This document shows, piece by piece, positions 27,847-54,271 of a DNA stretch of 64,000 nt (positions are counted from its first letter, which is position 1; every line of letters begins with the position of its first letter). A program made the translations under genes and the position numbers. This DNA is from Dehalococcoidia bacterium UBA2247. Its GTDB lineage: Bacteria > Chloroflexota > Dehalococcoidia > UBA2247. Where the stretch lies: NCBI GenBank assembly GCA_002347295.1, contig DDXZ01000030.1, positions 45,216 through 109,215 of the forward strand. The letters are read 5' to 3'. The notes beneath the pieces were generated by a model. That model was not told the DNA's origin and did no database searches. It was given only the letters and a program-made list of their open reading frames with translations.

Positions 27847-28911
27847 TGATCTCGTTCAGATAGACAACTGACACTATAATAGTGTCATGAAAATAAGATA
27901 TAACATCGTTAAAGGAAGCTATCAATTAAGCAGATTAGCAATTGATCTGTCTAAAGAAGCGCAAGTCAGACTGAGCTGGTTTGATTCCTACCGGAATCAT
28001 CAGTATAACGCCCGCTTAACTTGCCGACACTTCGGGATATCGCCGCAGACCTTTTATCGCTGGCAGAAACGTTATGATCTTCATCATCGCAAAACTCTGG
28101 AAACCCGTTCCCGCCGTCCAAAGAGAGTGCGCCAACCAACCTATACTCTGGCACAGATTGAAGCCGTACGTAAGGTACGAGAATGTTATCCCCACAGAGG
28201 CAAAGACAAACTGGCGGTAGTGCTACGGGCAGCAGGATATGAATTGTCCGTTTCTCTGGCAGGACGCATCATCCCTTATCTCAAGAAACGTAATGTCTTA
28301 CGGGAATCCATAAGACATAAGGTATCCTCACGCAAATACGGAAGACCGGGACATTATGCCGTTCGTAAACCGCAAGAATACCAGGCGAAACTGCCGGCAG
28401 AATTAGTGCAACTGGATACTATGGATATCCCGCCCCTTACCCGGTATCGTCTTGAAACACTTCTCTTCTTACGATGTCGTCTCCCGTTGGAATGTCCTCG
28501 CTATTTACCATCAAGCTCCCGCGGAGAATGCCGCTCTCTTCTGGGATGATATCCCAAAACGTACTCCCCATATCATCAAATCCATACAGAGCGACGGCGG
28601 TAGTGAATTTCAATTCGGTATTCGAAGAGGAATGCCAAAAACGAAAGAGCAAACTCTTCGTTTTACCACTCCGATCACCCCAACTGAACGGAGTAGTGGA
28701 AAGAGCCAATCGTACCCATGCCGAGGAGTTCTATGAAGTCATTGATAGTACCTTTGACCTTGCAAATATCAGACCTGAACTCTTACAATGGGAACAGGTA
28801 AGTAATACTATCCGTCTCAACCAGGACTTGCGTTATCTCACCCCGCAACAGAATCTGGAGAAATATTATAAGAAGGTAATGTGTCACTAATGTACTGAAC
28901 GAGTACATTTA
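27847..28911 (+). mobile_element. rve-type IS (IS481-like), copy 1, transposase frameshifted
   Basis: Terminal sequences TGATCTCGTTCAG... and ...CTGAACGAGTACATTTA are shared with copy 2. The transposase is split over ORFs 27887..28549, 28452..28736 and 28474..28890, with D/D/E motifs LVQLDTMDI, SDGGSEF and VERANRT. Confidence 0.65.
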
Positions 28912-28979
28912 CGGACCGGGTTTTCGCAGGCAATCCGGCGGCAGTTTGCCTGCTGGATAAGTGGATTCCCGATGCCCTC

Positions 28980-29657
28980 ATGCAAAGCATTGCCACCGAA
29001 AATAATCTTTCGGAAACGGCTTTCGTCGTACCGGCAGGACCGCACTTTGAAATACGCTGGTTTACTCCCCAAGCGGAGATTGATCTGTGTGGTCACGCGA
29101 CACTGGCATCAGGTCATGTCCTTTTTCAGCATAAAAAATTCAGCGGTTCCAGCATCGAATTCTATTCTAAGAGCGGATTACTCACGGTGGAAAGGAATGG
29201 AGATATCCTCGTTCTCGATTTCCCCTCCCGCCCACCCGTACCCTGCACCATACCCCCAGGATTGGGGCAAGCTTTAGGACAGCATCCGCTGGCAGTACTT
29301 ACCGCGCGAGATTATCTCGTCGTCTTTCCCTCTGAAGAAATAGTGCGGAAACTCCAACCGGATATCGCTTTGCTCAACCAACTGGAGAAAGCTGTTATTG
29401 TAACTGCCTGGGGGAAGGAAGTTGATTTTGTTTCCCGCTTCTTTGCTCCGATATACGGCATACCGGAAGACCCCGTAACCGGTTCTTCTCACTGTACTCT
29501 TATCCCCTACTGGTCGAAGCAGTTGTCGAAGGATATTCTGGTTGCACTCCAGGTCTCGGCAAGAGGGGGAAAGCTCTACTGCCAAAACTGCGGCGACCGG
29601 GTGAAAATCGGCGGACATGCTGCCACTTATCTGCAGAGCTACCTGTCAAATTATTAA
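28980..29657 (+). CDS. PhzF-family isomerase-like protein, 5'-truncated by IS copy 1
   Basis: The PhzF signature 'GNPAAVCLL...SETAFV' is present. The frame continues upstream to the IS boundary at 28911, so the native N-terminus is lost. Confidence 0.5.
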   Translation: MQSIATENNLSETAFVVPAGPHFEIRWFTPQAEIDLCGHATLASGHVLFQHKKFSGSSIEFYSKSGLLTVERNGDILVLDFPSRPPVPCTIPPGLGQALGQHPLAVLTARDYLVVFPSEEIVRKLQPDIALLNQLEKAVIVTAWGKEVDFVSRFFAPIYGIPEDPVTGSSHCTLIPYWSKQLSKDILVALQVSARGGKLYCQNCGDRVKIGGHAATYLQSYLSNY

Positions 29658-29838
29658 CTATTTTCCCGGCGGAATTTATTTTCGTTTTCTTTAATTTACT
29701 TATCCCACAGCGATAACAAATGCGCTATTTTATCAATAAAAGCAGAACAGAACAAAACGTCGAGCGATGCTAACTCTCATTTGCCTCCGATAACAGGACG
29801 TGATATATTAGAGGACAAATATCGTCAGGAGGTTACGG

Positions 29839-30411
29839 ATGGTCCGCATTCCTTATGTTGAAAAAGAGAACGCTGCTCCGGAAGTGGCTGAGCTTTATGC
29901 TAAGATGGAGAGCCGGGGATTCCCCATACAGAATCTCTGGAAGATGGCCGCTCATTGTCCCGCTGCGCTGGGACATATGATCAGATTGGGTGATGCTGTG
30001 CTGTTGAAGACCAGACTGAACCCGACTCTGCGCGAAATAGCCATTCTCCGCTCCGCTGTGATTCTTGATTGCGCATATGAGACCAAGGCGCACACCGGGA
30101 TGGGCAAACAGGCGGGAGTGACTGATGAGCAAATCCAGGCTGTAAAGGACTGGAAAATATCCCGAGCTTTTAACAAGACGGAACAGGCAGTATTACGTTT
30201 CACCGATGAAATCACCAGAGAAGCTAAGGTTTCTGACGAGACCTTTACCAACCTGCAACAGTATCTCGATGCTGATATGATGGTAGAACTGGCGATTACC
30301 ATTGGCTTCTACGGCATGCTTGCCCGCGTTCTCCTGCCCTTCCAGGTAGACCTGCAGGAGATATCTCAGTCAACCGGGCAGAATTTACTCAATCGCTCTC
30401 GCGGTCAGTAA
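29839..30411 (+). CDS. carboxymuconolactone decarboxylase/AhpD-like family protein
   Basis: CMD-family helical core pattern. Confidence 0.6.
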   Translation: MVRIPYVEKENAAPEVAELYAKMESRGFPIQNLWKMAAHCPAALGHMIRLGDAVLLKTRLNPTLREIAILRSAVILDCAYETKAHTGMGKQAGVTDEQIQAVKDWKISRAFNKTEQAVLRFTDEITREAKVSDETFTNLQQYLDADMMVELAITIGFYGMLARVLLPFQVDLQEISQSTGQNLLNRSRGQ

Positions 30412-30623
30412 AAACTATAAATTAGCGGAAGCCAAGTTGACCCGAACAACTTATTACGTTAACTATGCTCTGTTAGCAATTTGTTAGCAAAATCTATCTG
30501 GACATTACACCTTATTAGTGTTCAGTTTCATCGTCAGCCCTACGAATAAATTCTACTAAGGAAACTCTGAAAAAGTCTCCGGATATGAGATAATAGTGAT
30601 ATCGAATATCATAGGAGCAAAAT

Positions 30624-31151
30624 ATGAGAACATTATCCTTTGCCAGCTTAGTCTATGAACAGAAGAAAAAGAAAACCCGACGGGAACAATTTCTGGAAGA
30701 GATGGACGAGGTTATTCCCTGGGAAGCTATGGTGAAAATCATCCGTCCATATTATCCAAAAGCAGGCAACGGACGTCAACCAATGCGGTTGGAGATGATG
30801 CTGAGGATATACTTCCTGCAGCAATGGTATGGTCTGTCAGACCCTGCGATGGAAGATGCGCTCTACGATATAGAAGCGATAAGGCGATTTGCGGGAATTG
30901 ATCTTCAAACGGATGCGGTGCCTGACGAAACGACGATATTGCACTTTCAACACCTTTTGGAGAAGTACAAACTGACGGAGAAGTTGTTTGAGCAGTCGCG
31001 GCGATATCTCATAGACAAGGGATTGATGGTAAGAGAGGGAACGATAGTTGATGCCACGATACTGAATGCGCCCTCAGCGACGAAAAACAAGGGAAATGCT
31101 CGTGATAAGGAGATGAAGCAGACCAAGAAAGGGGAGCTAATAGTTCCTTGA
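30624..31151 (+). pseudogene. IS5-family transposase, N-terminal ~175-aa fragment
   Basis: It is strongly IS5-like: 'YPKAGNGRQPMRLEMMLRIYFLQQWYGLSDPAMEDALYDIEAIRRFAGIDL...GTIVDATILNAPSATKNKGNARDKEMKQTKKG'. The ORF stops there and the C-terminal half of the DDE domain is absent. Confidence 0.7.
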
Positions 31152-31660
31152 AAACCTGCACTACCTCTGCTACACTGATTTCTACTTTCATAGGCGCTTC
31201 TCCTTTCTTATTGTTTTATTTCTTTCAATAAAACCTTGTAAAGGAAAGCGCCCTATTTTCAATCCCCCGCAATTTCACACAAAAAATTTTACACTACCGG
31301 CAATAGGGGATATGTTTTTTTTGCAGTGACACCAGGTCATGGGATGCAAATGCTCTGGGTAGAGAATCCGGCAGTAGTGGCCGACAAGAACGGCTTCTTA
31401 AAGAGTGGTTGGGTCGTCGCTTCTATTGGTGATGTACTCAATACAATTGTCGGATTGTCAAAGAAGATAAACTCCAGCGACTGGCGGGAGGCGGTAGCTT
31501 GGATTGCGACATATGGAGACTGTCGTTTCTCGTAATTTCGACGTCGAAACATAGGACAGTAACCATTTGAATTCGGTGTCCTATATTCTATCGGAGACAA
31601 TGGATATAGTCTCTTTTAGCTACGAAATAGCATCAACACTGATTTCAACCAGCCCTTTTA

Positions 31661-31678
31661 TGGTGGAGACGGGGGAGA
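31661..31678. repeat. 18-bp direct repeat copy A (tggtggagacgggggaga), tRNA-3'-end-like
   Basis: It is identical to 40007..40024. On the minus strand it reads TCTCCCCCGTCTCCACCA. Confidence 0.6.
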
Positions 31679-32008
31679 GTAGATCTCTCTCTAAAATAAA
31701 TTCTTCTCATGTTAGTGAATTAGTAAACATGAGTGGTGCATCGAATGTAATTCCTTCTTTTGTTTGATCCAGCTTTGTCATAATACAATTAATTACGAAT
31801 CAGTCTAACATGTTCGTGTATTTTGCCCTTATGTTAGATAAGATGCCGTGTAACATGTAAAGTGTTGCTAATCTGTCAAACAGGGACAAAACAGGGACGA
31901 GTTCCGTGTCGTTCTTGATAAGCAAATTAAAAGGGAATATAATCGCCCCCAACCACAAAGTACTAAGAATTGCCAACCGCTGGTTCCCTAAGCTAAAAGG
32001 AGGATGAT

Positions 32009-32554
32009 ATGTCGATTGATAACCTGTCTATTGTGCAGAAGATTCTAGATAATGAGAACCTTTTGGCTCAGCGTGCCGACCAGAAAGCAATATCTTTATT
32101 GTCAATCCTGGGAGTATTCATGGTGTTCTTTATTATTAATTATCGCGTTATCCCGGTAAACATATTTACTATAATATTAATTGTTTTATATTTTTTAGGG
32201 GCTATCTTGTCTATTATTAACCTTCTGATGGCTATCCGTCCCCGGGTACGGGTAGAAATCAGCGACATGAAAGTAAGAAATAATATGCCCGCTCATGATC
32301 CCGCCTTTTTTGGTGGTATTTGTAATTATCCCCATGCCTCTGCTTATAAAGAGGCTCTAAATCAGGTGATTGGAGACGAAGCCACTATCATGGATATTTA
32401 CATCCGTCAAATTTATACTGTAGCCCAGATTAATGCATCAAAATATATGCATGTCCAGCGTGGTGTATTACTGGTAGTGACCACATTATCCATTGAATTC
32501 GCTCTTATCGTTTATCTCTTTATATCATTTTGGGGAGCAGGGAAAATACAATAA
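32009..32554 (+). CDS. small membrane protein (2 N-terminal TM helices, ~95-aa soluble region, C-terminal TM)
   Basis: The hydrophobic segments 'ISLLSILGVFMVFFIINY', 'IFTIILIVLYFLGAILSIINLLMAI' and 'VLLVVTTLSIEFALIVYLFISFW' are present. No domain recognised. Confidence 0.4.
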   Translation: MSIDNLSIVQKILDNENLLAQRADQKAISLLSILGVFMVFFIINYRVIPVNIFTIILIVLYFLGAILSIINLLMAIRPRVRVEISDMKVRNNMPAHDPAFFGGICNYPHASAYKEALNQVIGDEATIMDIYIRQIYTVAQINASKYMHVQRGVLLVVTTLSIEFALIVYLFISFWGAGKIQ

Positions 32555-32602
32555 TTTCTTAAAGATTTAAATGCAAAAGTATTACTGTAGTAATATTCCA
32601 GA

Positions 32603-34450
32603 TCAATTGTTATCTTTTATTTTTATTACTCTGTAGACAGTAACCGGTGCTGTTTTCCCTTTGAACGTCTGCGGTTCCATGATTTCACTCTCAATATATT
32701 CCTTTGTTTGCGCATATGTTTCCGGACCAATCCATACTTCACCACCCGGCGTGACACTGCAAATACGAGAGGACAGATTAACAGTATCTCCGATAACAGT
32801 ATATTCTACCCGTCCGGCAGAACCGACGTTGCCGGCTAAAGCTTTCCCGGTGTTGATACCGATACCAAACTGAACAATAATACCCCCCGGTTTGTCTTGC
32901 TGTAATTTTTTCAGTTTCTCCTGCGCTTCCAGGGCTGTTTTTACCGCCAGCAAAGCGTGTTTTTGTTGAGAGTAAGGGGCATTCCAGAGCGCCATAACAT
33001 TGTCCCCGGCAAATTTATTGATGATACCGCTATTTTCCATGGTGGTATCTATCACCGCTCCGAGATAAGTATTTAACATTTGCACCACTTCTGCAGGGGA
33101 GAGGCGTTCACTGATACGGGTAAAATTACGCATATCCGCAAAGAGAATAGTGACCTCTCTTTCTTCACCACCCAGGTCCAGTTTCCCGCAATTTGCCAGA
33201 CTGATTATGCTTTCCGAAATCTGGGGCGAAACATACCTCCCGAAGAGTCCTTTTACAAACTGTTTATCTGATTGTTCCGTTATCAGCATATAAATAACGT
33301 TACCAATGTACAGTACCAATAATAACAATAACGGATAAAGAATATTCATGATATACCCTTTACCGGCCATAACCGTACCCGCAATTATGTAACAAAGAGA
33401 TAAACCTATTACAATACCCGTTACCTTTACTATGTCCCTCCAGCTCCATGTTCCGCAGCGAGACCAAACAAGTGCCGTGATAAAAGTGAGGAGCAGCATT
33501 AACAATACTGTGATACTCATACCAACCGGTCTTAAGAAATTCTGTTGCAGAATAGTGTCCATGGCCGCCGCATGAATATAAATTCCCGGAACTTTAGCTG
33601 CCATATTGGGAATAGGCCAGACATCCAATTCTCCGGTAGCCGTCATACCAATTATCACTACTTTACCTTTAACCAGTGACGGATCAAAGTTTCCCCGGAT
33701 GATATCTCCATAAGAAATATAAGGACGACTTACGTGCCCGGCACTAAAGTTAATCAACAGGGAATAATATTCTTCTACCGGAACATTACGGGCAATCAAA
33801 TAGAGAGAACCCTCTGTCAGTGCATATTGCTCCGGTAAAGGCATGCGGAATAAAGAATGAAGTACTGCGAGAGTAAGTGAGGGGTGGATTTGCCCTGCGT
33901 AATCTTCTACTACTAACGGTAAATGACGTACCTTACCATCAGAATCAGGAATTACATTAGCATGTCCTGTATTCAGAGAAGCTTCTTCTAACAGTTCCGC
34001 CGGTAATAAAAAATTAGTGTAAGTAATCATATTTTCCGCTGGGATACTCCCCGTCCCGGTTTCTGCCAGAACAACATTACCGGCATTAAGCATGGCAGCA
34101 GCCATACTCTCATCATCAGGAGAACTATCGGTAAAAAGAACATCAAATCCAATCACCCTTGCTCCCGCCTGACTGAGGTTATTTACTGCTTCTGCATGCA
34201 GTGAGCGCGGCCACTCCGACCATCTGCCATAAGTCTCCAGAGTATCATCATCGATACCGGCAATAATGATGTTGGGAGATAGCGAACCGGAAGGATAAAA
34301 CTGGTCTGATGTCCATAAATTAATGTTATGTAGCGGTTGCACCAGAGCCAGAATGAGAACAGAGATGCATCCTGTTATAGCAATTGCCAGGGCATGAAAC
34401 AGACGCTTATGCTGCCGCCGATTTTTCAGAACTTTATGTAAAAATGCCAT
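32603..34450 (-). CDS. CHASE2 sensor domain-containing class III adenylate/guanylate cyclase
   Basis: The N-terminal TM and CHASE2 pattern ('IIIAGIDDDTLETYGRWSEWPR...VIGFDVLFTD') is present. TM helices follow, then a C-terminal cyclase homology domain ('VTILFADMRNFTRISE...FAGDNVMALW'). Confidence 0.75.
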   Translation of the reverse strand: MAFLHKVLKNRRQHKRLFHALAIAITGCISVLILALVQPLHNINLWTSDQFYPSGSLSPNIIIAGIDDDTLETYGRWSEWPRSLHAEAVNNLSQAGARVIGFDVLFTDSSPDDESMAAAMLNAGNVVLAETGTGSIPAENMITYTNFLLPAELLEEASLNTGHANVIPDSDGKVRHLPLVVEDYAGQIHPSLTLAVLHSLFRMPLPEQYALTEGSLYLIARNVPVEEYYSLLINFSAGHVSRPYISYGDIIRGNFDPSLVKGKVVIIGMTATGELDVWPIPNMAAKVPGIYIHAAAMDTILQQNFLRPVGMSITVLLMLLLTFITALVWSRCGTWSWRDIVKVTGIVIGLSLCYIIAGTVMAGKGYIMNILYPLLLLLVLYIGNVIYMLITEQSDKQFVKGLFGRYVSPQISESIISLANCGKLDLGGEEREVTILFADMRNFTRISERLSPAEVVQMLNTYLGAVIDTTMENSGIINKFAGDNVMALWNAPYSQQKHALLAVKTALEAQEKLKKLQQDKPGGIIVQFGIGINTGKALAGNVGSAGRVEYTVIGDTVNLSSRICSVTPGGEVWIGPETYAQTKEYIESEIMEPQTFKGKTAPVTVYRVIKIKDNN

Positions 34451-34480
34451 AATTTAAATTATGCTCGACCTTAACTTTAT

Positions 34481-35707
34481 TTAATCAAGAGCTTGCCATT
34501 CGTAAGCTCCTATGTCAGTAACCCCATTATAAGGACGAACCTGTCCCACAATATCAAAAAGTGGCGCATTTACATTGGTACCGCTGTCAATACAGGGAGA
34601 ACTTTGTGTCAGATTAAAATTGTTGAATTCCGGATAGACGAATAGTGGGTCAGCACTGATATTATCCTCGCCGTCATAACCATTCTCAATATCGGAATAG
34701 GTGACTGTGATAGTGTTTTCATCATCTGTGACAATGTCGTACGGTGTATTATTATCCCAAATAATGGTGTTTGTTATCGTTATTGCCGTGGCACTATTGT
34801 TTAAAGTACCACCTAACTCGCTCATATTATTGGAGAACGTGCAGTTGGTTAGCACAAGAGCATTAGAAACAGTAGCAATTGCCGCGCCCGCAGAATAAGC
34901 ACTGTTACCCGTAAACAGGCAGTTGGTGAAGACAACATCTGATGCATCATCGTACACTGCACCGCCTTCAGTACCAGAAAAGTTACTGATAAATATGCAG
35001 TTGGTGAAGATAGCATCCGATATTTCATTATAGACCGCACCGCCGCAGTTCAGAGGAATAGAACTAGTGGACATATTACTGGAAAATATACAGTCGGAGA
35101 CTAACAATGCAGACTGGTAATTATAGAGCGCGCCACCGGAAAGAGCAGCATTTCCAAAGAAGGCGCAGTGTCCGATAACAAGCGTGGAATTCTCACAATA
35201 AATCCCTCCACCCAGACCATCTATATCTTCTCCGGAGGCATTTCCTCCCGTAATACTGAATCCATCCAGTACACCACTAACACCGGAACTATAGATTACG
35301 TGGTAACAATTAGCAATATCAATCTGGCCGCTGAGAACAGTGATATTCGTCTGCCAATCCCGCCCTGCGAGGGAAGCTTCTGTACCGTCAAAATCACCAT
35401 AAAGAGAAACACCATCTTTTAATGGGAAAGACACTGTACCACCAATTTCTACAGAGGGATAATATGTTCCGGACGCCACCCATATCTGGTCACCGCTGCC
35501 ACTAAGATCCAGGGCACTCTGCAAACTATTAAATGCATCTACCCAGGAAGAACCATCATTAATCCCCTGAGCATTGGTATTAACAAAAATCACTCTGGTA
35601 AACATAACCACATTATCACTGCTGCTGGAAGCAGCATTAGTATTACCAGCAGCATCCGAAGCGACACCGGCACCAATAGTCGCCATTACTGTGCCGCTGG
35701 CGGTCAT
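34481..35707 (-). CDS. parallel beta-helix protein with Pmp-like GGA(I/L/V) repeats, probably the C-terminal part of the same surface protein
   Basis: The repeats 'GGAIY/GGALYN/GGAVYN/GGAVYD' and 'FxxN' are typical of polymorphic-membrane-protein/pectin-lyase-fold proteins. There is no signal peptide. Its frame is open upstream into the preceding ORF ('...GGSGGTGTTYNIAVSGMTASG'). Confidence 0.55.
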   Translation of the reverse strand: MTASGTVMATIGAGVASDAAGNTNAASSSSDNVVMFTRVIFVNTNAQGINDGSSWVDAFNSLQSALDLSGSGDQIWVASGTYYPSVEIGGTVSFPLKDGVSLYGDFDGTEASLAGRDWQTNITVLSGQIDIANCYHVIYSSGVSGVLDGFSITGGNASGEDIDGLGGGIYCENSTLVIGHCAFFGNAALSGGALYNYQSALLVSDCIFSSNMSTSSIPLNCGGAVYNEISDAIFTNCIFISNFSGTEGGAVYDDASDVVFTNCLFTGNSAYSAGAAIATVSNALVLTNCTFSNNMSELGGTLNNSATAITITNTIIWDNNTPYDIVTDDENTITVTYSDIENGYDGEDNISADPLFVYPEFNNFNLTQSSPCIDSGTNVNAPLFDIVGQVRPYNGVTDIGAYEWQALD

Positions 35708-37419: not shown

Positions 37420-37633
37420 TTTAATTCCTGCTTATCATAAAAATCTTAATATGAATAATTTTTCTTATATCTTATATATAGAACTACCGGTAAATCTCAG
37501 CAAAACACATTTATTTCCCGGTAATAATACATCTTTTCTGCTATAACTTCATCAGAAAATATGGCATCTGCTTTTCTGATTATTAACTTACTATAATACG
37601 TTCCCCCGGTATAGAACCTGTGTCCCAATTTAT

Positions 37634-38401: not shown

Positions 38402-38811
38402 TTCTTAACATCCTGTAAATAATTATTAATCCCTCTTTAACAAAAACCGTCTTTAATACACCGATACTTTCATATTTTGGGTCATATCTACGAAGAAAAC
38501 GTAAATTTATACCGCTAATCTCAAGTCAATATATTTACTATTAAAATAATTGTCAAGGAATAATAATAGTACTTTTGTTCAAACACAGTTGAAAGATTAA
38601 ACCCGCCACTATGAGCGACGGGATTCCCCAATTCACACTGATAATCTTATTTCTCCCAATGTCTTGATGAAATATTTACAGCAGGAATATAATAACGTCC
38701 AGCATACCACCAATTCCGCCAGGAAAAAACTACAGTCTCAGAAGTGGACTGATTAGAGACGGATTATTGGTATATAATAAGCATTAAGAAGAATATTTGA
38801 GGACACAACAA

Positions 38812-39819: not shown

Positions 39820-40006
39820 TAATTTTTCCCTGTTAATCAATTCGAGATAGGGTAAGGTCAATATTAAAGAAACAAAATCAATCGTGGCAATAAAACCTAA
39901 ACCGCCCTTTGCTCCCATCTTTCAGGTGGCAATAATGCGTGAGAGAGCTGGTATCAAATTAGTGAATGAGCCTCAGGAAATTACCCCTGAGGCTCAGAAT
40001 TGTTTC

Positions 40007-41492: not shown

Positions 41493-41553
41493 CTCTTTTT
41501 AATAATATATTAAGTTCCATCCTAACTATCAGTTATTGATATAATAATGATAA

Positions 41554-42504: not shown

Positions 42505-42507
42505 GGT

Positions 42508-43749: not shown

Positions 43750-43754
43750 ATTTA

Positions 43755-45452: not shown

Positions 45453-45533
45453 ATTTTATGTCTCCTTAAATATTATACCGGAGCAGTGTTTTTGTATGAT
45501 GATATTGGCGAATTATAGTATATGAGGTAAATC

Positions 45534-46583
45534 TCAGGCAAGAGAATCTATTTCATCAAATAATCCTTGTAAAATATCTTTCTCTTCTAATGTTTGAACA
45601 ACCTTACCCTTCCTAAAAATAACCCCTTTCCCTTTACCGCAAGCTACCCCGACATCGGCTTCTTTTGCTTCTCCAGGACCATTAACAACACAGCCCATGA
45701 CGGCTATTTTCAATGGTTTATGAATATTGTGCAGTTTGTCCTGTACTTTGTCTGTTAATTCCATTAAATTGACGTCACAACGTCCACAAGTAGGACAGCT
45801 GACCAGAGTAGGACCATATTCCCTTAAGTTGAGAGTTTTAAGTATCTCATAAGCTGTTATTACTTCTTCAACGGGAGAAGAAGTAAGGGAAACACGAATT
45901 GTATCTCCGATGCCATGCTGTAATAATATTCCGATACCAACGGCACTGCGAATTTTACCGGTGACCGATGGTCCTGCTTCGGTAATTCCTAAATGAAGCG
46001 GGTATGGTATTTTGTCGGCAATCAAATTGTATGCATCTATGGTTGTTTCTACATCAAAAGCTTTGAGTGAAACTTTAATCAAATTAAAATCAAGGTTCTC
46101 CAGAAGATGTACCTGTTCAAGTGCAATTATCACCATGCGCTGAGGAAGCGGTAATTTATTAGAGGAATCGAGTGGGATACTGCCAGCGTTAATCCCTATA
46201 CGAATGGGAACATGGCGTTCTCTGGCTGATGTTACTATTGCCGTAATATGTTCTTTATTACTGATATTACCCGGGTTAAGACGTAATCCATCCGCACCAT
46301 TAGTGAGTGATTCAAGAGCGAGACGGTAATCAAAGTGAATATCTGCGATAATGGGAATTTTTGTCTTCTTTTTAATTTTGTATAGCGCTTGTGCCGCTTC
46401 CATATCCGGAATCGCAATTCTGACTATTTCACAACCATATTCTTGCAGTTGACTGATTTGTTTTACTGTTGCTGTAATATTACGTGTATCAGTTTTAGTC
46501 ATGGACTGTACGATAATTGGCGCATTACCACCAATGATAATATCACCAATACGAATAGGCTGGGAGATACGTCGTTTAATCAT
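45534..46583 (-). CDS. ispG: 4-hydroxy-3-methylbut-2-en-1-yl diphosphate synthase (flavodoxin)
   Basis: 'IGGNAPIIVQSMTKTDT' N-terminus and C-terminal Cys ligands. Confidence 0.85.
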   Translation of the reverse strand: MIKRRISQPIRIGDIIIGGNAPIIVQSMTKTDTRNITATVKQISQLQEYGCEIVRIAIPDMEAAQALYKIKKKTKIPIIADIHFDYRLALESLTNGADGLRLNPGNISNKEHITAIVTSARERHVPIRIGINAGSIPLDSSNKLPLPQRMVIIALEQVHLLENLDFNLIKVSLKAFDVETTIDAYNLIADKIPYPLHLGITEAGPSVTGKIRSAVGIGILLQHGIGDTIRVSLTSSPVEEVITAYEILKTLNLREYGPTLVSCPTCGRCDVNLMELTDKVQDKLHNIHKPLKIAVMGCVVNGPGEAKEADVGVACGKGKGVIFRKGKVVQTLEEKDILQGLFDEIDSLA

Positions 46584-46591
46584 GATATGAA

Positions 46592-47620
46592 CTAACCTCT
46601 GATGAGACGCAAAATATCGTTATACCAGACAAAGACTGTTAGAATTATTAGTAGAAATGTTCCTAAGGTGTAAATTAACTGCTCATATTTTATCGAAAGC
46701 CGTTTGCCCCGGCGTAGTATTTCAAGCAGGGCTAAAGCCATACCTGCTCCATCAAGCGGAGGGATGGGAATCAAGTTAAATAATGCCAATCCTAAACTGA
46801 TGCTACCTGCCACGCTGACAACAGAAGATGCCCCATATTTAATCATTTCTCCGGTTACTTGTGCTGCTCCAATAGGACCCATTAAGTTATCCGCAGGATT
46901 TCGTATTAATGATGATATTAAGTTTCTCATTGTTGTTGGGATATGTATAATAATATCTGCCGATTCGGAAATAGCTTCCAGAAGACTCAGACGGTATGTA
47001 GTAGTATACTCCTTTAACCAGCCTAATGTTATGCCTAGTGGTCTTTCTCCTGTTGCTGGGACCAGATTAATAGTGATAATTTCATCGGCTCGTTGTAGCG
47101 TTATTTGTGTTTCTGTTCCAGTCCGGTCTTGTATTATTTTACTGACATCGGTTAATGCCTGGACATCTTGGCCATTTATACTCAGGATTACATCTCCTTC
47201 GCGGATATCGGCTTCTGCAGCGGGATAACCTGCTGATACTTGTGTCACCTTTACCCCTTCTCCTCCCGTAATAATAGAAGTTGGCATTGTTAGAGCGGTA
47301 GTGAAGAGAATAAAGGCTAATATGATATTGAATATCAAGCCTGCGGAGTTTTCTAATAATTTGAACCAGGGATTCTTAAAATACAGGTTCCGGGGGGTAA
47401 GTTCTTCTCGGTTGGGCATTCTAACGAAAGCTCCTACCGGTATCAGGTTGACTGAATATTTCGTTTCACCATGCTGGAACGCAAAAATTTTAGGTGGAAA
47501 ACCCAGACCAAATTCATCTACTCTAACCCCGCCCAGTTTGGCAATAAGGAAGTGGCCGAATTCATGAAACAACAGCAGTGCTGATAAAATTGCAATAATG
47601 ATAATAATATTAAGAATCAT
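46592..47620 (-). CDS. rseP: RIP metalloprotease RseP (site-2 protease)
   Basis: 'HEFGHF' zinc motif, PDZ domain and C-terminal TM helices. Confidence 0.8.
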   Translation of the reverse strand: MILNIIIIIAILSALLLFHEFGHFLIAKLGGVRVDEFGLGFPPKIFAFQHGETKYSVNLIPVGAFVRMPNREELTPRNLYFKNPWFKLLENSAGLIFNIILAFILFTTALTMPTSIITGGEGVKVTQVSAGYPAAEADIREGDVILSINGQDVQALTDVSKIIQDRTGTETQITLQRADEIITINLVPATGERPLGITLGWLKEYTTTYRLSLLEAISESADIIIHIPTTMRNLISSLIRNPADNLMGPIGAAQVTGEMIKYGASSVVSVAGSISLGLALFNLIPIPPLDGAGMALALLEILRRGKRLSIKYEQLIYTLGTFLLIILTVFVWYNDILRLIRG

Positions 47621-48768
47621 TTAGATCTTCCCCACTCTCTGGCATATGCTCTTGCTTCAATATCAGCAGCCAGAATATCTTCTATAGAGGTTCCTTTTAT
47701 ATTATGATGTTTTAAAGCATATTCTATTATTTTAGCAATATCCGTGAAATTAATCATGCCGGAAAGGAATAATTCTACTGCAACTTCATCGGCCGCTGAT
47801 AGTACTGCAGGATAAGTGCCTCCCTTTTTACCAGCTTCAAGAGCAAGTTGCAGGCAGGGGAATTTATCCTTATTAACCGGATTAAAAGTTAATTGTGATG
47901 AGACCGTCCAATCTATCGACGGTAAATTCGCATGATGAGGACGTTCGGGATATAGTAGAGCATATTGTACTGGTAGTCTCATATCAGGGTAGCTTAATTG
48001 TGCCTTTGTGGAACCATCAGTAAATTCTATCATAGAATGTACAATACTTTGCGGATGAATAACGACTTGTATTTTCTCCAGAGGTACATGAAATAGCCAG
48101 TGCGCTTCCAGTATCTCCATACCTTTATTCATTAATGTTGCAGAATCAATAGTTACTTTCCTTCCCATTTTCCAGGTAGGATGTTTTAGTGCTTCAGAAA
48201 CAGTAACTGTATCCAATTGACTTTGAGTATAGTGATAAAAAGGTCCGCCGGAAGCAGTTAAGATAATTCTGGAAATAGTATTCGTTTTTTCTCCGCGCAA
48301 ACACTGCCAGATAGCGCTATGTTCACTATCGATGGGTAATATTTTTGCCTTATGCCTTCTGGCTTCAGGAATGATGATGGCTCCTCCGATTATTAAGGCT
48401 TCTTTGTTGGCAAGGGCGATTTTTTTACTCGCTTTTGCCGCAGCCAGAGTGGGCAAGAGTCCTGTTTTACCACTGGTTGCAATAACAACTATATCCACAA
48501 TCGGGAGAACCGCGATTTCTTCAAGAGTCAGCCAGGGATAGTCTTGCAGTAGATTATCGGCCGGGCGGGAATCTTTTGCCGGGCGGATATAATGAACAAT
48601 ATCGGGGTGAAATTCTCTAACCTGATTGGCTAATAACTCGATATTGAATCCGGCTGCCAGTGCAACAATATTGAATCTCTCAGGGAATGTGCGTAAGACA
48701 TCAAGAGTTTGTTGTCCTATCGAGCCAGTTGATCCCAGTACGGCAATGCGAATTTTTTCACGAGTCAT
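47617..48768 (-). CDS. dxr: 1-deoxy-D-xylulose 5-phosphate reductoisomerase
   Basis: 'IAVLGSTGSIGQQTLDV' NADPH-binding N-terminus and Dxr pattern. Confidence 0.85.
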   Translation of the reverse strand: MTREKIRIAVLGSTGSIGQQTLDVLRTFPERFNIVALAAGFNIELLANQVREFHPDIVHYIRPAKDSRPADNLLQDYPWLTLEEIAVLPIVDIVVIATSGKTGLLPTLAAAKASKKIALANKEALIIGGAIIIPEARRHKAKILPIDSEHSAIWQCLRGEKTNTISRIILTASGGPFYHYTQSQLDTVTVSEALKHPTWKMGRKVTIDSATLMNKGMEILEAHWLFHVPLEKIQVVIHPQSIVHSMIEFTDGSTKAQLSYPDMRLPVQYALLYPERPHHANLPSIDWTVSSQLTFNPVNKDKFPCLQLALEAGKKGGTYPAVLSAADEVAVELFLSGMINFTDIAKIIEYALKHHNIKGTSIEDILAADIEARAYAREWGRSK

Positions 48769-48801
48769 GACGCTTAATAGTATATTTTTATGATTGCGGC
48801 G

Positions 48802-49656
48802 TCAATGTATGTTCCAGGATACATAGTAATATATTATTAATCCGGTGAATATCATGCTGCCAATTCTATCAAGGATGCCGCCGTGTCCTGGTAATATAGT
48901 GCCTGAATCCTTCACTCTGTTAATTCGCTTAATTCGTGAACATAGTAAATCACCTAACTGCGCAAAGATACCTGTAAGACAACCCAGAATTGCGGCAGTT
49001 CCATAACCTAGGAGGGGCATGGAGGAAGACCTGTGAAAAATAAAAGCAAGGAGAATTGTGGTGCTCACTGCTGCGCAGAAACCGGCGATTGCTCCTTCCC
49101 AGGTTTTATTTGGGCTGACAGAGGGGGCTAATTTATGTTTACCACGACTTTTCCCTACGAAATAAGCAGCTGTATCACAGGCAAAAGTGGGTAGCATAGC
49201 AATTAGTATCCATTGTTTACCTGACGGATAATCTATTAACAAGACATAATGTTGCAACGCCCACCCGAGATAGAAGATGGGTATTATAGTCCAGACCCAG
49301 TGGCTAAAAAGATTATTTTTTTGAGAGCATATTATTATCGAGAGTAAAGGAACAAGTAGAGCTGCTATAGACAAAATAAGCAATAGACTAATTTCGGTGG
49401 ATGTTACATAGTAAGGAATGATGATAATCAAAGCGGTGAATAGAGTTCCTATTATAGTTAAATAATGATGCTCTGAATGAAATGACATGCGGTAAATTTC
49501 CAGAGCTCCTAATATGGCCAGAATAGTAATAAAAAAAAGGAACAAAGGATTACCGAGTTTAATAACGACCAGAATAACAAGCAGACTAGTTAATCCGGTG
49601 ATTACTCTTTTAGTTACAACACTGGTCTCATTTTTTTTGCCAGAAGTAAAATTCAT
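48802..49656 (-). CDS. cdsA: phosphatidate cytidylyltransferase
   Basis: Multi-TM protein with the C-terminal CDS signature 'KRINRVKDSGTILPGHGGILDRIGS'. Confidence 0.8.
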   Translation of the reverse strand: MNFTSGKKNETSVVTKRVITGLTSLLVILVVIKLGNPLFLFFITILAILGALEIYRMSFHSEHHYLTIIGTLFTALIIIIPYYVTSTEISLLLILSIAALLVPLLSIIICSQKNNLFSHWVWTIIPIFYLGWALQHYVLLIDYPSGKQWILIAMLPTFACDTAAYFVGKSRGKHKLAPSVSPNKTWEGAIAGFCAAVSTTILLAFIFHRSSSMPLLGYGTAAILGCLTGIFAQLGDLLCSRIKRINRVKDSGTILPGHGGILDRIGSMIFTGLIIYYYVSWNIH

Positions 49657-50384
49657 TTAGACAAGCCACCAAAACGTCTGCATCTCTGCTTATATATTTT
49701 AAATGCTTTGTTAATTTCATCTTGATTAAAATCGGGCCATAAAGTAGATGTGAAATAATATTCACTATATGCGCTTTGCCAGAGAAGAAAATTACTGATA
49801 CGCATTTCTCCTCCTGTACGGATAATAAGGTCAGGAGAAGGTATTTTATCAGTATATAAATAACTATTGAATAATTCCTCGTTAATATCCCTTGGTTTTA
49901 TTTTGTCCTGTACAATTCTTTGTGTTGCATTTATTATTTCTGCTCTTCCTCCATAATTTACAGCGATAATAAGATGCAATCCGGTATTGTTTTGAGTCAG
50001 TTCTGTTGCTGCATGAATTTTACCCTGTAATTCCTTAGGTAACTTACTGAAATCACCGATGAAATTTATTTTGACGAATTCTTTATGCAGTAAGGGAGTA
50101 TTATGGGTAATAAACTCTCCCATTAAAATAAAAATACCTTGAACTTCAATAGAAGGACGTCTCCAATTTTCTGTAGAAAATGCATATAATGTAAGATATT
50201 TCACACCATAGCTAGACATAGTCTGAATAATAGGGCGACAATTTTCTGCTCCAGCATGGTGTCCAGCAATCCGCGGAAGTTTTTGTTTTGCTGCCCAGCG
50301 GCCATTACCATCCATAATAATAGCAACATGATGAGGAATGGAATCGGAAACTGCTCTTGAAGTTGTTGAGATGTGTTCCTTCAA
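49653..50384 (-). CDS. uppS: isoprenyl transferase (undecaprenyl-diphosphate synthase)
   Basis: 'HVAIIMDGNGRWA' motif. Confidence 0.85.
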   Translation of the reverse strand: MKEHISTTSRAVSDSIPHHVAIIMDGNGRWAAKQKLPRIAGHHAGAENCRPIIQTMSSYGVKYLTLYAFSTENWRRPSIEVQGIFILMGEFITHNTPLLHKEFVKINFIGDFSKLPKELQGKIHAATELTQNNTGLHLIIAVNYGGRAEIINATQRIVQDKIKPRDINEELFNSYLYTDKIPSPDLIIRTGGEMRISNFLLWQSAYSEYYFTSTLWPDFNQDEINKAFKIYKQRCRRFGGLSK

Positions 50385-50387
50385 ATA

Positions 50388-50945
50388 TTAGATTTCCATA
50401 ATTTCTGATTCTTTATCTTTACATATAGTATCTATTTCTTCAATTAATATATCTGTTGTTTTTTGTAGTTGGGCTAATGCTCTCTTTTCGTCATCCTCTG
50501 TTATTTCACTGTCTTTCTTTAATTTGCGTATATTTTCCATAGTGTCCCGTCTGATATTACGCAGGACAACTTTAGCGTCTTCGCCCCTTTTCTTAAGTAT
50601 CTTAACCATGTCTTTTCTTTGTTCATTAGTTAACGATGGTATAGTAATACGGATGATAGTACCATCATTAGAAGGATTAAGATTAAGATTAGATTTTTGT
50701 ATGGCTTTCTCAATTTTACCCAATGCAGATTTATCCCAGGGTTGAATTACGAGTAATCTGGCTTCAGGTACAGAGATATTAGCAATGTGCTTAATGGGAG
50801 TAGGCACACCCTGATAATCTACTTTCACCTGTTCCAGAAGCGCTGGTGTTGCCCGTCCGGTTCGTATTGCAGCTAAATCACGACGGAATATCTCATTACT
50901 TTTCTGCATTTTAGCGTTAGCATTTGCAAGAACGTCAGTAATCAT
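50388..50945 (-). CDS. frr: ribosome recycling factor
   Basis: 185 aa with RRF pattern. It sits between pyrH and uppS. Confidence 0.85.
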   Translation of the reverse strand: MITDVLANANAKMQKSNEIFRRDLAAIRTGRATPALLEQVKVDYQGVPTPIKHIANISVPEARLLVIQPWDKSALGKIEKAIQKSNLNLNPSNDGTIIRITIPSLTNEQRKDMVKILKKRGEDAKVVLRNIRRDTMENIRKLKKDSEITEDDEKRALAQLQKTTDILIEEIDTICKDKESEIMEI

Positions 50946-50951
50946 CTTTCA

Positions 50952-51668
50952 TCACCTACTTGAGACTAATGTTCCAATACGCTCCCCATCCACAACTCGT
51001 TCTATTCCGTGTGGTTCTAGAATATTAAAGACTACGATAGGTAGTTTATTATCCATACATAATGAAAAAGCTGTGGAGTCCATTATTTCTAAGTGCCTTG
51101 TAATAGCTTCAGAATGAGTAATAACGTCGAATTTTACTGCCCCCTGTTTTTTTGCAGGATCATTATCGTAAATACCATCGACGTTATGTTTTGCCATAAG
51201 TAGTATTTCAGCCTGGATTTCGATGGCTCGTAATGCTGCTGTGGTATCGGTAGTCATATACGGGTTACCGGTGCCGGCGGCAAATATTACCACCCGTCCT
51301 TTTTCTAGATGACGAATAGCTCTGCGCCGGATAAATGGTTCAGCAACTGTTTGAATAGGTATTGCTGTCATAGTACGACATTCTATATTAGCTTTTTCCA
51401 GTGCGTCCTGCAGGGTAAGAGCATTAATAATTGTTGCTAACATTCCGGCATAATCAGCAGTGACACGATCCATTCCTCTGTTTTCGGCATCTGCACCGCG
51501 CCATATGTTACCGCCGCCAACAACAATTCCAATCTGGGTTCCACTTCTGGTGGTTTCGGATATTTGATCTGCGATATGTGTTACTGCTGTGGTATCAATG
51601 ACGGAGTCGCCCTTTCCTCCCAGCGCTTGACCACTTATTTTTAATAAGACCCGTCTATACCTCGGCAT
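50952..51668 (-). CDS. pyrH: UMP kinase
   Basis: '[15 protein letters not shown]' N-terminus and amino-acid kinase fold. Confidence 0.85.
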
Positions 51669-51677
51669 TTATAACAC

Positions 51678-52181
51678 TCAACAACCCAGCGCAAAACGAC
51701 AGAATCTTTTTATCTTGATATTCTCTCCAGTTTTGGCAATAGCTTCATTAATAATATCCTGAACAGTTTTGCTTGGGTCCTTAATAAAAGGTTGTAATAG
51801 TAAACATGCTTCTTCAGGAGTAAGGTCAGTATTATTAACCAGGTCTTCTTTATTAACACAAAGCGGATTTGCCCCTGCAACTTGAAGTGCCAGATTATGG
51901 GCTAATTCTTTAAAAACATCGGTACGTGCAACAAAATCGCTCTCGCAATTTATTTCCACCATAACTCCGAGGTGCCCACCTTGATGTACATATGTTTCAA
52001 TAGTTCCCTGTGCGGTGACTCTTTCTGCTCTTTTTGCGGCTCTAGCCAGGCCCTTCTCTTTTAATATTTCTGTAGCCTGTTCTATGTTACCATCGGTTGT
52101 AATTAAAGCATTACGACAATCCATTATCCCCGCGCCAGTTGCCTCACGCAAAGTCTTAATAAGTGCAGTGGTAATCTCCAA
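51678..52181 (-). CDS. tsf: translation elongation factor Ts (short form)
   Basis: UBA-like N-terminus 'ALIKTLREATGAGIMDCRNAL'. It lies downstream of rpsB. Confidence 0.8.
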   Translation of the reverse strand: MEITTALIKTLREATGAGIMDCRNALITTDGNIEQATEILKEKGLARAAKRAERVTAQGTIETYVHQGGHLGVMVEINCESDFVARTDVFKELAHNLALQVAGANPLCVNKEDLVNNTDLTPEEACLLLQPFIKDPSKTVQDIINEAIAKTGENIKIKRFCRFALGC

Positions 52182-52197
52182 GAAAAATCCTCCTCAA

Positions 52198-53049
52198 TTA
52201 TTGTGTTTTATTATCAGCAATATCAGTTGTAGTCTCAATATTATTCGTATTTTCAAGTTTGGAAGGTTCAGAGTCAGGGCTGAAACTTAATACTTTTTGA
52301 TTTATTAATGCTTCAGCGCTTTCGGCTGCCAATTGTTCTTGTTCAACTTTCTGAAGTGCTTTTCCTTCGAGAATTGAGTCAGCCATTTTAGTGGTGATTA
52401 ACTTTATTGTTCTGATAGCATCATCATTAGCCGGGATAACATGGTCGATGACAAACGGATCAGAATTAGTATCAACTACGCCAATAATGGGAATTTTCAT
52501 TCGGTTAGCTTCTGCTACGGCAATAGACTCCCGGCTAGTATCAATAATAAATAGAGCTCCGGGAATTTTGGTCATTGTTTTAAGACCACCCATAGAGCGT
52601 TCCAATCTTTGTATTTCTCGCTCTAATTTTAATACTTCTTTTTTGGGTAAACGCTCAAATTCGCCTTTGGATTTACGATCTTCTAACTGCGACAAATAAT
52701 TAATACGCGATTGAATAGTATTAAAATTAGTTAGAGTTCCACCTATCCATCGCTGGTTAACAAATGGCATACCACAGCGTGTTGATTCTTGTGCAATTGA
52801 TTCTTGAGCTTGTCTTTTGGTCCCGACAAAAAGAATATCGTGGCCTTCGGAAGCAATTTTTCTTACTAATTCACACGCTTTATTCAGTAGTAATTCAGTT
52901 TTTTGCAGGTCTAGTATATGTATCCCGTTACGCTGGGTATAGATATAGCTTTTCATACGCGGATTCCATCTACCCACCTGATGACCAAAATGAGCACCAA
53001 CTTCTAATAACTGTTTAATTGAGATAGTTTCAACAGGACTTTCTGCCAT
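52198..53049 (-). CDS. rpsB: 30S ribosomal protein S2
   Basis: '[19 protein letters not shown]' signature and an acidic C-terminal tail. Confidence 0.85.
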
Positions 53050-53106
53050 ACAACCTCCTTAATTTTGTGCACAAGAGTTTACCACAAATGATAGGTCTAA
53101 AACAAC

Positions 53107-54271
53107 TAAATGTACTCGTTCAGTTCATTGGTGACACATTACCTTCTTATAATATTTCTCCAGATTCTGTTGCGGGGTGAGATAACGCAAGTCCTGGTTG
53201 AGACGGATAGTATTACTTACCTGTTCCCATTGTAAGAGTTCAGGTCTGATATTTGCAAGGTCAAAGGTACTATCAATGACTTCATAGAACTCCTCGGCAT
53301 GGGTACGATTGGCTCTTTCCACTGCTCCGTTCAGTTGGGGTGATCGGGGTGGTAAAACGAAGAGTTTGCTCTTTCGTTTTTGGCATTCCTCTTCGAATAC
53401 CGATTGAAATTCACTACCGCCGTCGCTCTGTATGGATTTGATGATATGGGGAGTACGTTTTGGGATATCATCCCGGAAGAGAGCGGCATTCTCCGCGGGA
53501 GCTTGATGGTAAATAGCGAGGACATTCCAACGGGAGACGACATCGTAAGAAGAGAAGTGTTTCAAGACGATACCGGGTAAGGGGCGGGATATCCATAGTA
53601 TCCAGTTGCACTAATTCTCCCGGCAGTTTCGCCTGGTATTCTTGCGGTTTACGAACGGCATAATGTCCCGGTCTTCCGTATTTGCGTGAGGATACCTTAT
53701 GTCTTATGGGTTCCCGTAAGACATTACGTTTCTTGAGATAAGGGATGATGCGTCCTGCCAGAGAAACGGACAATTCATATCCTGCTGCCCGCAGCACTAC
53801 TGCCAGTTTGTCTTTGCCTCTGTGGGGATAACATTCCCGTACCTTACGTACGGCTTCAATCTATGCCAGAGTATAGCAGGGTGTTGAAAAACCTTGTTTT
53901 GGATTAAAAAGGGGTGTTGGCTAGGCACGAATTTTGGATGATTTTCACGCATTTTGCCTTTTTCAACACCCTGATAGGTTGGTTGGCGCACTCTCTTTGG
54001 ATGGCAGGAACGGGTTTCCAGAGTTTTGCGATGATGATAATCATAACGTTTCTGCCAGCGATAAAAGGTCTGCGGCGATATCCCGAAGTGCCGGCAAGTT
54101 AAGCGGGCGTTATACTGATGATTCCGGTAGTAATCAAACCAGCTCAGTCTGACTTGCGCTTCTTTAGACAGAACAATTTCTAATCTGCTTAATTGATAGC
54201 TTCCTATAACGATATTATATCTTATTTTCATGACACTATTATAGTGTCACTTATCTATCTGAACGAGATCA
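53107..54271 (-). mobile_element. rve-type IS (IS481-like), copy 2, inverted relative to copy 1, carrying a MITE insertion
   Basis: It has the same termini and transposase as copy 1 (ORFs 53797..54231, 53468..53797 and 53125..53565 on the minus strand). It is ~101 bp longer because of the insertion at 53877-53973. Confidence 0.65.
53877..53973. mobile_element. MITE-like element (~97 bp) inserted into IS copy 2
   Basis: 15-bp terminal inverted repeats cagggtgttgaaaaa / tttttcaacaccctg are present. It is absent from the otherwise collinear copy 1. The flanking CTAT is duplicated (ccaacCTAT|MITE|CTATactc versus ccaacCTATactc in copy 1). Confidence 0.6.

Follow-up and report, generated by a model that had tools for sequence, protein, structure and literature searches.

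Inverted, defective IS481-like copies around the rpsB-proS gene cluster of a Dehalococcoidia contig probably mark old breakpoints

Results

Two inverted IS copies enclose an accessory block and a block of core genes

We analysed a window of 64,000 nucleotides from Dehalococcoidia bacterium UBA2247 (assembly GCA_002347295.1, contig DDXZ01000030.1, positions 45,216 to 109,215), in which two copies of an insertion sequence (IS) stand in inverted orientation at the positions given by the first-pass annotation (Table 1); the arms found by repeat search match those positions exactly. The rpsB-to-proS cluster that had been described inside the pair was found there with its genes as named (rpsB, a short tsf, pyrH, frr, uppS, cdsA, dxr, rseP, ispG and proS, all on the - strand at 43755-53049), and the further region of decayed IS sequence reported within the segment is an IS5-family fragment. 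This fragment belongs to an accessory-like block, block D, of which the first 2.2 kb has a GC3 of 0.51-0.57, compared with 0.30-0.36 in the core blocks. Between block D and the core genes of block E lies an intergenic region whose 43-nt repeat resembles a tRNA 3' end, with no match in tRNA and Rfam searches, and whose ORF fragment (40.1-40.33 kb) matched no Pfam or NCBIfam family.

Table 1. Features of the region around the two IS copies (window coordinates)
Feature	Position	Strand	Remarks
MscS-like channel gene	26720-27781	+	outer flank of copy 1
IS481-family IS, copy 1	27847-28911	+	1065 bp, defective
PhzF-family gene, truncated	28911-29657	+	at right end of copy 1
Block D, accessory-like	28912-39819		PhzF', CMD-domain gene, IS5 fragment, PycTM protein, CHASE2 cyclase, K+ channel
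Decayed IS5-family fragment	30550-31151		within block D
Intergenic region with left skew switch	39820-40463		43-nt repeat (40003-40045) and ORF fragment
Block E	40464-53049		plsX-yloV'-fabF (+); proS-ispG-rseP-dxr-cdsA-uppS-frr-pyrH-tsf-rpsB (-)
IS481-family IS, copy 2	53107-54271	-	1165 bp, defective
MITE nested in copy 2	53877-53973		97 bp, 15-bp terminal inverted repeats CAGGGTGTTGAAAAA
mutS2	54421-56802	+	outer flank of copy 2
Block F	54.4-61 kb		mutS2 side of copy 2

The PhzF-family gene that adjoins copy 1 on the right has an open frame as far as the junction with the IS and lacks about 11 residues of its N-terminus; its 5' part was found in none of the known left-end flanks of the IS, nor nearby. 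Copy 1 marks a breakpoint, because this gene is cut where the IS ends and has lost its 5' part. The genes between the copies and those adjoining them include no recombinase gene, and the sole integrase-like gene lies at 3160-3915. With no recombinase nearby and with whole IS copies as its borders, the segment was rejected as a programmed invertible segment of the kind switched by a site-specific invertase.

Both copies belong to one IS481-like element and have lost an intact transposase

The two copies align as three collinear inverted-repeat arms (copy 1/copy 2: 27847-28144/53974-54271, 28141-28614/53403-53876 and 28615-28911/53107-53403). Mismatches number 12 of 298 positions in the left part and 11 of 771 in the right part, so that the copies differ in total by 23 substitutions, a 1-bp indel and the nested 97-bp MITE. 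The indel is a single extra T at 28615, private to copy 1. The description of the pair as the same IS in inverted orientation is borne out. In copy 2, the 101-bp insertion consists of the MITE and a 4-bp duplication, CTAT in the orientation of the IS, which stands on each side of it (53873-53876 and 53974-53977). The terminal repeat of the MITE, CAGGGTGTTGAAAAA, is also present at the end of an IS5-family element at 26469-26483.

The terminal inverted repeats of the IS, TG(AT/TA)CTCGTTCAG, are present at the four IS ends and nowhere else, and the two ends TGATCTCGTTCAG and TGTACTCGTTCAG are identical at 11/13 positions. The 1065-bp element therefore has the length of about 1-1.3 kb and the short terminal inverted repeats starting with TG that are expected of the IS481 family; neither copy has the single intact transposase ORF. 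After repair of its lesions, the transposase (333 aa) matched positions 2-282 of the 284 in NF033577, the IS481 model, with an E-value of 8.7e-43 and 146.9 bits, which is the best family match (IS3 scored 59 bits) but falls short of the curated threshold of 224 bits. The unrepaired fragments match the same model, and the precomputed Pfam matches of the IS were rve_3 and HTH_28. Judged by sequence, the element appears to be a distant member of the IS481 family that scores below the NCBIfam cut-off.

A +1 frameshift directly after LVQLDTMDI (about 28465 in copy 1) is common to both copies. Copy 1 carries a second frameshift in addition, while copy 2 carries a CAG>TAG nonsense codon and the MITE insertion. 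Since both transposases are dead, the copies are open to host homologous recombination only, and now serve solely as inverted stretches of 1.1-kb homology on which RecA-type recombination can act. Copy 1, copy 2, the copy in contig L003 of another sample and the remnant in L120 all lacked target-site duplications, both direct and crossed ones, and therefore no junction can be paired with another by this means. The missing duplications are compatible with later recombination among copies of the IS.

Strand composition is reversed between plsX and rpsB

Bulk GC skew was set aside and four-fold degenerate sites were used instead, because bulk skew is dominated by gene strand. On the + strand, four-fold G/C skew was -0.14 and -0.27 to the left of the window and -0.23 to its right; inside the window it was -0.23 in block C (17.6-27.8 kb), -0.11 in block D, +0.21 in block E and -0.30 in block F. 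Against a contig background of -0.14 to -0.30, the positive value extends over about 39.6-53.0 kb, from plsX to rpsB, and block E differs from block F (p=7e-14), from block C (p=1e-12) and from block D (p=2e-8), at about 600 sites per block. The positive skew of block E holds for genes of both strands, low-expression genes included. Genes of the + strand differ in skew between blocks E and F when compared with one another (p=2e-7), and the reversal is therefore not a coding-strand effect. The background itself is not uniform, with a weaker block of positive skew at 7.4-16.3 kb.

Two changepoints only, 39.5 kb and 52.9 kb, came out of penalised segmentation. The support interval of the right changepoint (52669-54606) contains copy 2, whereas that of the left one (37838-40553) leaves copy 1 outside. 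Copy 2 thus parts two blocks of opposite replication-strand composition and, presuming the usual leading-strand excess of G in this uncultured lineage, we infer that the stretch from plsX to rpsB, about 13.5 kb, is turned around with respect to the remaining contig. Judged by its length, the independent contig of L002 should end near 40237, within the intergenic region of the left skew switch.

The first-pass annotation had proposed a past or potential inversion of the whole 28.9-53.1 kb segment. A reversed-skew footprint ending at copy 2 supports the right-hand half of this proposal; the left edge, at about 39.5 kb and not at copy 1, does not agree with it. We consider it probable that the two copies are a defective pair from a multi-copy IS481-family element standing at old breakpoints, and that the region was shaped by several IS-associated events rather than by one 24-kb flip. 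These events may have comprised an inversion or translocation, a deletion and the gain of the accessory block at 28.9-39.8 kb, in an order that we can only suggest. The host is an uncultured Dehalococcoidia-like member of the Chloroflexota from methanogenic hydrocarbon-degrading cultures, with a genome rich in IS and prone to rearrangement.

We regard it as unlikely that the entire 28.9-53.1 kb was flipped once, by homologous recombination of copy 1 with copy 2. In favour of such a flip, the inverted repeats are 1.1 kb long with an identity of 96-99%; the polarity of block E is reversed, and re-inverting the segment would match it to both flanks. Placing the left changepoint at copy 1 improves on a model with no changepoint by 24 log-likelihood units, but is 14.4 units worse than placing it at 39.5 kb, and the skew therefore does not demonstrate that all 24.2 kb were inverted in one step. 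Block D differs from block E and leans to the background. The GC3 of block D, above all at 28.9-31.2 kb, is foreign-like, so that the block may have been in the host too briefly to take on its skew, or may have come in later; a single inversion of the whole segment is possible only if 28.9-39.8 kb was acquired later. An inversion of this kind also predicts the PhzF 5' end at the left-end flank of copy 2, from which it is absent, and crossed target duplications, which are absent as well.

Less probable still is an account free of rearrangement, with two independent simple IS insertions and a skew that reflects gene-specific codon usage or a horizontal origin of the block. In its favour, the order from rpsB to proS is widely conserved, few genes lie behind the skew measure, and copy 2, which sits 57 bp upstream of rpsB, spares a promoter-like TGnTAAACT element. 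This account is at odds with the reversed skew of + and - strand genes alike in block E, with the truncation of PhzF at copy 1, where the 5' half is not found across the IS, with the lack of target duplications, and with an outer flank of copy 2 that varies among strains exactly at the IS end.

The nearest relatives available (62% identity for MutS2, 75% for MscS) had no synteny at either junction and are too distant for the ancestral order to be read from them. The best MutS2 relative (62% identity) carries no gene of the window in the 10 kb upstream of its mutS2, and where long contigs hold an MscS homologue, of 73-75% identity, its neighbours are unrelated.

The IS junctions recur in other samples and vary among strains

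JGI contig 3300002821 Iso3TCLC_10002495 matches the window at 100% identity, and all four junctions between IS and flank recur in contigs of other samples and assemblers. Exact-match look-ups with the proteins of the IS ORFs, plsX, the longer mutS2 ORF and the window's last gene gave no match, probably owing to differences in start codon or indexing. Eight contigs from several samples preserve the junction of MscS with the left end of the IS; this junction and that of the right end with PhzF' were seen in L012-L018 and L100/L101. For copy 2, the link from mutS2 through the left end to the MITE is present in L008, and the link from the MITE through the right end to rpsB in L003, both from other samples. 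A tail in L014 that diverges from the IS proved to be Nextera adapter and not biology. When the IS left end was compared with a metagenome DNA collection, one that evidently lacks the source sample, the 15 matches shared about 26-33 nt or nothing with it, and none carried the transposase.

The flanks of copy 2 differ among strains. In L003, from a strain 99.4% identical, the mutS2 flank is replaced by other DNA, the change falling exactly at the IS end, and the left end of the MITE-bearing copy adjoins other genes (396 aa, MatE and 403 aa). L003 spans one whole IS with this third flank, and the first 100-140 bp of its IS is a third variant. The skew of the L003 flank is also opposite to that of the rpsB block, and therefore neither of the known arrangements gives a uniform polarity. 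In L009, the outer flank of copy 2 differs in the proximal 25 bp.

Markers that tell the two copies apart form mosaics in L003, L008 and L012, which show exchange between IS copies, in line with the earlier view of the inverted pair as a recombination substrate. Gene conversion between the two copies is visible here. L008 carries 18 markers of copy-2 type followed by four of copy-1 type and ends 40 bp short of the flank; its most economical reading is that both copies are identical over 28399-28887 in that sample, which implies gene conversion and leaves an inverted isomer unproven. Because L003 and L008 are k=141 short-read assemblies, graph chimeras are possible in both.

Were the two copies to cross over, the 24 kb between them would be inverted with every junction left as it is. 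We think it improbable that the segment actively flip-flops, with both orientations coexisting through recurrent recombination between the dead copies and the L008 hybrid as one trace of it; if it did, the essential rpsB-proS cluster would toggle between running co-directional with replication and running head-on to it.

An artefact, in which one IS was duplicated in assembly or the contig mis-joined through the repeat, is more improbable again, even though the contig was assembled from short metagenome reads across repeats of 1.1 kb. The differences at 23 sites, the indel and the 101-bp insertion identify two real copies, and the recurrence of the four junction links in other samples (L003, L008, L012-L018 and L100/L101) rules out the duplication of a single IS, a possibility raised in the first-pass annotation.

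Discussion

In composite transposons of the Tn5 and Tn10 type, inverted IS arms surround other genes, and here likewise one IS brackets the segment twice, with its left ends outward. That such a transposon mobilises the 24-kb segment is nevertheless very improbable, as the first-pass annotation had also judged from the core genes enclosed, because neither transposase gene is intact, no target duplication is shared by the outer flanks (...AAGCCAG and AATAACAT...), which are unrelated, and the cargo consists of single-copy, essential housekeeping genes, whose junctions other samples show in the same fixed chromosomal context.

The preferred reading, of old breakpoints and several IS-associated events, has a parallel in Bordetella pertussis, where most breakpoints are reported to be IS481 and nearly all rearrangements to be inversions with inverted repeats at their flanks (PMC4888882). 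In both organisms inverted IS481-family copies lie at breakpoints and near-identical strains differ in structure; unlike in B. pertussis, the IS described here is an apparently distant IS481 member with a low copy number in a Chloroflexota host, and both copies are dead. As in GC-skew discontinuities left by IS- or rRNA-operon-mediated inversions in IS-rich genomes, a local reversal is bounded by a repeat. Here, only one of the two boundaries lies at a copy of the IS in question, the other falling in a degenerate intergenic region.

The locus is a case of ordinary IS-driven genome shuffling, that is, known biology in a new lineage, with no new mechanism or kind of element. It documents IS-driven structural variation among strains of 99-100% identity in an uncultured Dehalococcoidia-like organism, and indicates that skew at four-fold sites can expose a flipped block of essential genes from one metagenomic contig. 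This helps in reading MAGs of this lineage, in which contigs break at these IS copies and may be mis-joined across them. A further right-end remnant of the IS lies to the left of the window, and other IS-linked differences exist among the strains.

Two inverted copies of a defective IS481-like element

A repeat search of the whole window recovered three collinear inverted arm pairs, 27847-28144/53974-54271 (298 nt, 96%), 28141-28614/53403-53876 (474 nt, 99%) and 28615-28911/53107-53403 (297 nt, 99%), which coincide exactly with the two inverted IS copies recorded in the first-pass annotation. Pairwise alignment and direct counts gave 23 substitutions between the copies, unevenly spread (12 within the first 298 bp, 11 across the other 771 bp; Fisher p=0.016), in addition to an extra T at 28615 in copy 1 and a 101-bp insertion in copy 2. 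The termini, TGATCTCGTTCAG and TGTACTCGTTCAG, were found at the four IS ends only.

ORF fragments of both copies matched the NCBIfam IS481 transposase model. Three-frame translation revealed a +1 frameshift directly after LVQLDTMDI in both, a second frameshift in copy 1 that is caused by the extra T, and further lesions in copy 2, namely a CAG>TAG nonsense codon and a MITE. Conceptual repair of the frameshifted and interrupted ORF yielded a 333-aa protein covering positions 2-282 of 284 in the IS481 model (E 8.7e-43), by far its best family, though its score of 146.9 bits falls short of the curated 224-bit threshold. Judged from the sequence, this match and the lesions identify the element as a distant IS481-family IS of 1065 bp, with both copies non-autonomous. 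The insertion in copy 2 consists of the 97-bp MITE, which forms a hairpin (folding z = -4.7), and a 4-bp duplication, CTAT. Since the terminal repeat of the MITE is also found at 26469-26483, at the end of a frameshifted IS5-family element (~25.4-26.48 kb), this IS5 family is the probable source of the MITE.

Both copies are real and not assembly duplicates of a single IS, because every junction recurs in independent public metagenome contigs: MscS gene to IS left end (L012-L018), IS right end to the truncated PhzF-family gene (L100, L101), IS right end to rpsB (L002-L006), mutS2 to left end and MITE (L008), and MITE through right end to rpsB (L003). The linkage shown by the window is corroborated piecewise, and a 126-kb JGI metagenome contig (3300002821 Iso3TCLC_10002495) is 100% identical to it. 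The organism also occurs in several "hydrocarbon metagenome" samples and others; the nearest genomes are Dehalococcoidales/Chloroflexota MAGs, at 62% (MutS2) and 75% (MscS) identity.

A programmed invertible switch was rejected, as no invertase was found among the genes between or beside the copies and each border is a complete IS. The first-pass annotation had doubted a composite transposon, rightly: the transposases are dead, no target-site duplication, direct or crossed between copies, was found at any junction inspected, and the enclosed DNA includes the core genes it had named, which NCBIfam models confirmed (Table).

Table. Features and four-fold G/C skew in and around the window
Feature	Position	Strand	Skew	Remarks
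Two regions left of window			-0.14 and -0.27	
Block C	17.6-27.8 kb		-0.23	
MscS-like channel gene	26720-27781			Outside pair, copy 1 side
IS copy 1	27847-28911	+		
Block D	28.9-39.8 kb		-0.11	PhzF-family gene, CMD-domain gene, truncated IS5-family transposase, PycTM-domain protein, CHASE2 cyclase, two large secreted-type proteins, MBL-fold hydrolase, K+ channel
Block E	40.5-53.0 kb		+0.21	
plsX, truncated yloV/fakA, fabF	40464-43749	+		NCBIfam
rpsB, tsf, pyrH, frr, uppS, cdsA, dxr, rseP, ispG, proS	43755 (proS) to 53049 (rpsB)	-		NCBIfam
tsf	51678-52181	-		167 aa; covers only N-terminal third of 293-position Tsf model
IS copy 2	53107-54271	-		
MITE	53877-53973			97 bp; nested in copy 2; perfect 15-bp terminal repeats CAGGGTGTTGAAAAA
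Block F	54.4-61.1 kb		-0.30	
mutS2	54421-56802			Outside pair, copy 2 side
Right of window			-0.23	

A probable inverted block bounded by copy 2

Skew discontinuities are in general use as inversion footprints. Given that bulk GC skew follows gene strand, we compared G with C on the + strand at four-fold degenerate sites. Block E differed from F (p=7e-14) and from C (p=1e-12), and the + strand genes of E and F also differed (p=2e-7). The + strand G excess in E was seen for its three + strand genes and ten - strand genes alike, indicating that it belongs to the chromosome strand and does not reflect transcription or codon choice. Penalised segmentation over the full set of 2830 sites placed two changepoints only, at 39.5 kb and 52.9 kb, with likelihood-profile intervals of 37838-40553 and 52669-54606, the latter containing copy 2. 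Forcing the left changepoint to copy 1 was 14.4 log-likelihood units worse, still 24 units above no changepoint. Provided that the leading strand is enriched in G here, as is usual, we infer that ~13.5 kb from plsX to rpsB now lies opposite to its long-term orientation and that copy 2 is one breakpoint of this flipped block. The reversal at copy 2 agrees with the general skew footprint of inversions.

The first-pass annotation had proposed that the IS pair marks a past or potential inversion of the core-gene segment. This reading is partly supported: both copies sit at rearrangement breakpoints, with the flipped block ending at copy 2 and the PhzF-family gene truncated at copy 1; a single flip of the whole 24 kb is not shown, the left changepoint missing copy 1, and present-day flipping is unproven. 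The pair is in this respect like IS481 in Bordetella pertussis, whose copies are well described as inversion breakpoints (PMC4888882).

The left breakpoint maps to the intergenic stretch at 39820-40463 (645 bp) or close to it. This stretch holds a 43-nt repeat and an ORF fragment that has no Pfam or NCBIfam match; judged by its length, an independent MEGAHIT contig should end near 40237, inside this region. The 43-nt direct repeat (31657-31699/40003-40045, 81%), with its second copy in the left skew-switch region, resembles a tRNA 3' end, although tRNA calling gave none there. Elsewhere, a 41-nt inverted repeat (12054-12094/25321-25361, 98%) occupies two intergenic regions 13 kb apart. A different rve_3-type transposase (7390-8259, - strand, 289 aa), with only 28% identity in the catalytic core, lies at another four-fold skew switch, negative leftward and weakly positive over 7.4-16.3 kb; to its left, 3160-7215 holds a phage-integrase gene and small ORFs resembling an integrated element.

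Copy 1 is not a simple insertion

The PhzF frame is open to the last IS base (TDRVFAGNPAAVCLL...) and lacks its start codon and ~11 N-terminal residues, which are neither encoded in the 65 bp between the MscS gene and the IS left end nor present in the left-end flanks of copy 2, L003 and L009. Block D has a GC3 of 0.41 overall and 0.51-0.57 in its first three genes, compared to 0.30-0.36 in the core blocks, so D may be acquired DNA in which skew is little informative. Speculatively, recombination between copy 1 and copy 2 would first have inverted block E alone, after which D would have arrived next to the right end of copy 1 in an IS-associated event; this order fits all observations.

IS-linked variation among near-identical strains

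Near-identical strains of this lineage show repeated IS-linked structural differences, with the caveat that short-read assemblies represent all of them. L003 (ERZ27315056) is 99.4% identical over rpsB-pyrH and has a MITE-bearing IS adjoining rpsB; beyond the IS left end, mutS2 is replaced by genes that the window lacks, coding for a beta-propeller protein, a MatE transporter and a protein of 403 aa, and the skew of this flank is also opposite to that of the rpsB block. The first 100-140 bp of its IS represent a third sequence variant, the remainder being of copy-2 type. In L009 (SRR5324039), the match to the window breaks off 25 bp beyond the outer end of copy 2.

In L008 (ERZ27315059), 18 markers of copy-2 type give way to 4 of copy-1 type, switching within a 143-nt stretch identical between the copies. 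Gene conversion, a k=141 graph path or the inverted isomer could each account for this hybrid. The positions where contigs stop (L008 at 28871; L002 and L100 at 28747) are best explained if both copies are identical over 28399-28887 in that strain, which would mean gene conversion. The end of one public MEGAHIT contig (L014, 2197-2257) is a Nextera adapter (CTGTCTCTTATACACATCT...), and was rejected as an assembly contaminant that cuts short the path through copy 1 there.

Two sister strains (L012, L013; 99.3% identity) part from the window precisely at 26547/26548. Where the window has the IS5-family element ahead of the MscS gene (region 25400-26547), they carry an amidohydrolase and an Asp/Glu racemase fragment. 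Further left, a solo 50-bp right-end remnant of this same IS481-like element lies 1.3 kb outside the window. It adjoins an IS5-family copy that is intact (288 aa; L120 6142-7148; 1.4-2.3 kb left of the window) and to which the truncated copy at 30550-31151 is 91% identical. Here too the flank differs in a sister strain, L121, which has a fatty-acid synthesis cluster.

Genes between and beside the copies

The short tsf is probably a genuine short form rather than a pseudogene, since its sequence is identical in all samples. The 28.9-39.8 kb region looks accessory. Within it, at 32009-38401, a PycTM-domain gene (Pycsar effector family, E 1.6e-12) is convergent with the CHASE2-guanylate-cyclase gene, with an Apyc1-like MBL-fold hydrolase 3 kb away; these genes may form a cyclic-nucleotide defence or signalling island. 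YloV/FakA (41554-42504) has 316 aa against a profile of ~530, a flavocytochrome/FAD-binding gene at 57696-59042 is broken into ORFs of 108 and 280 aa, and IS3-family transposase fragments occupy 61635-62388; together, these suggest ongoing gene decay in the window.
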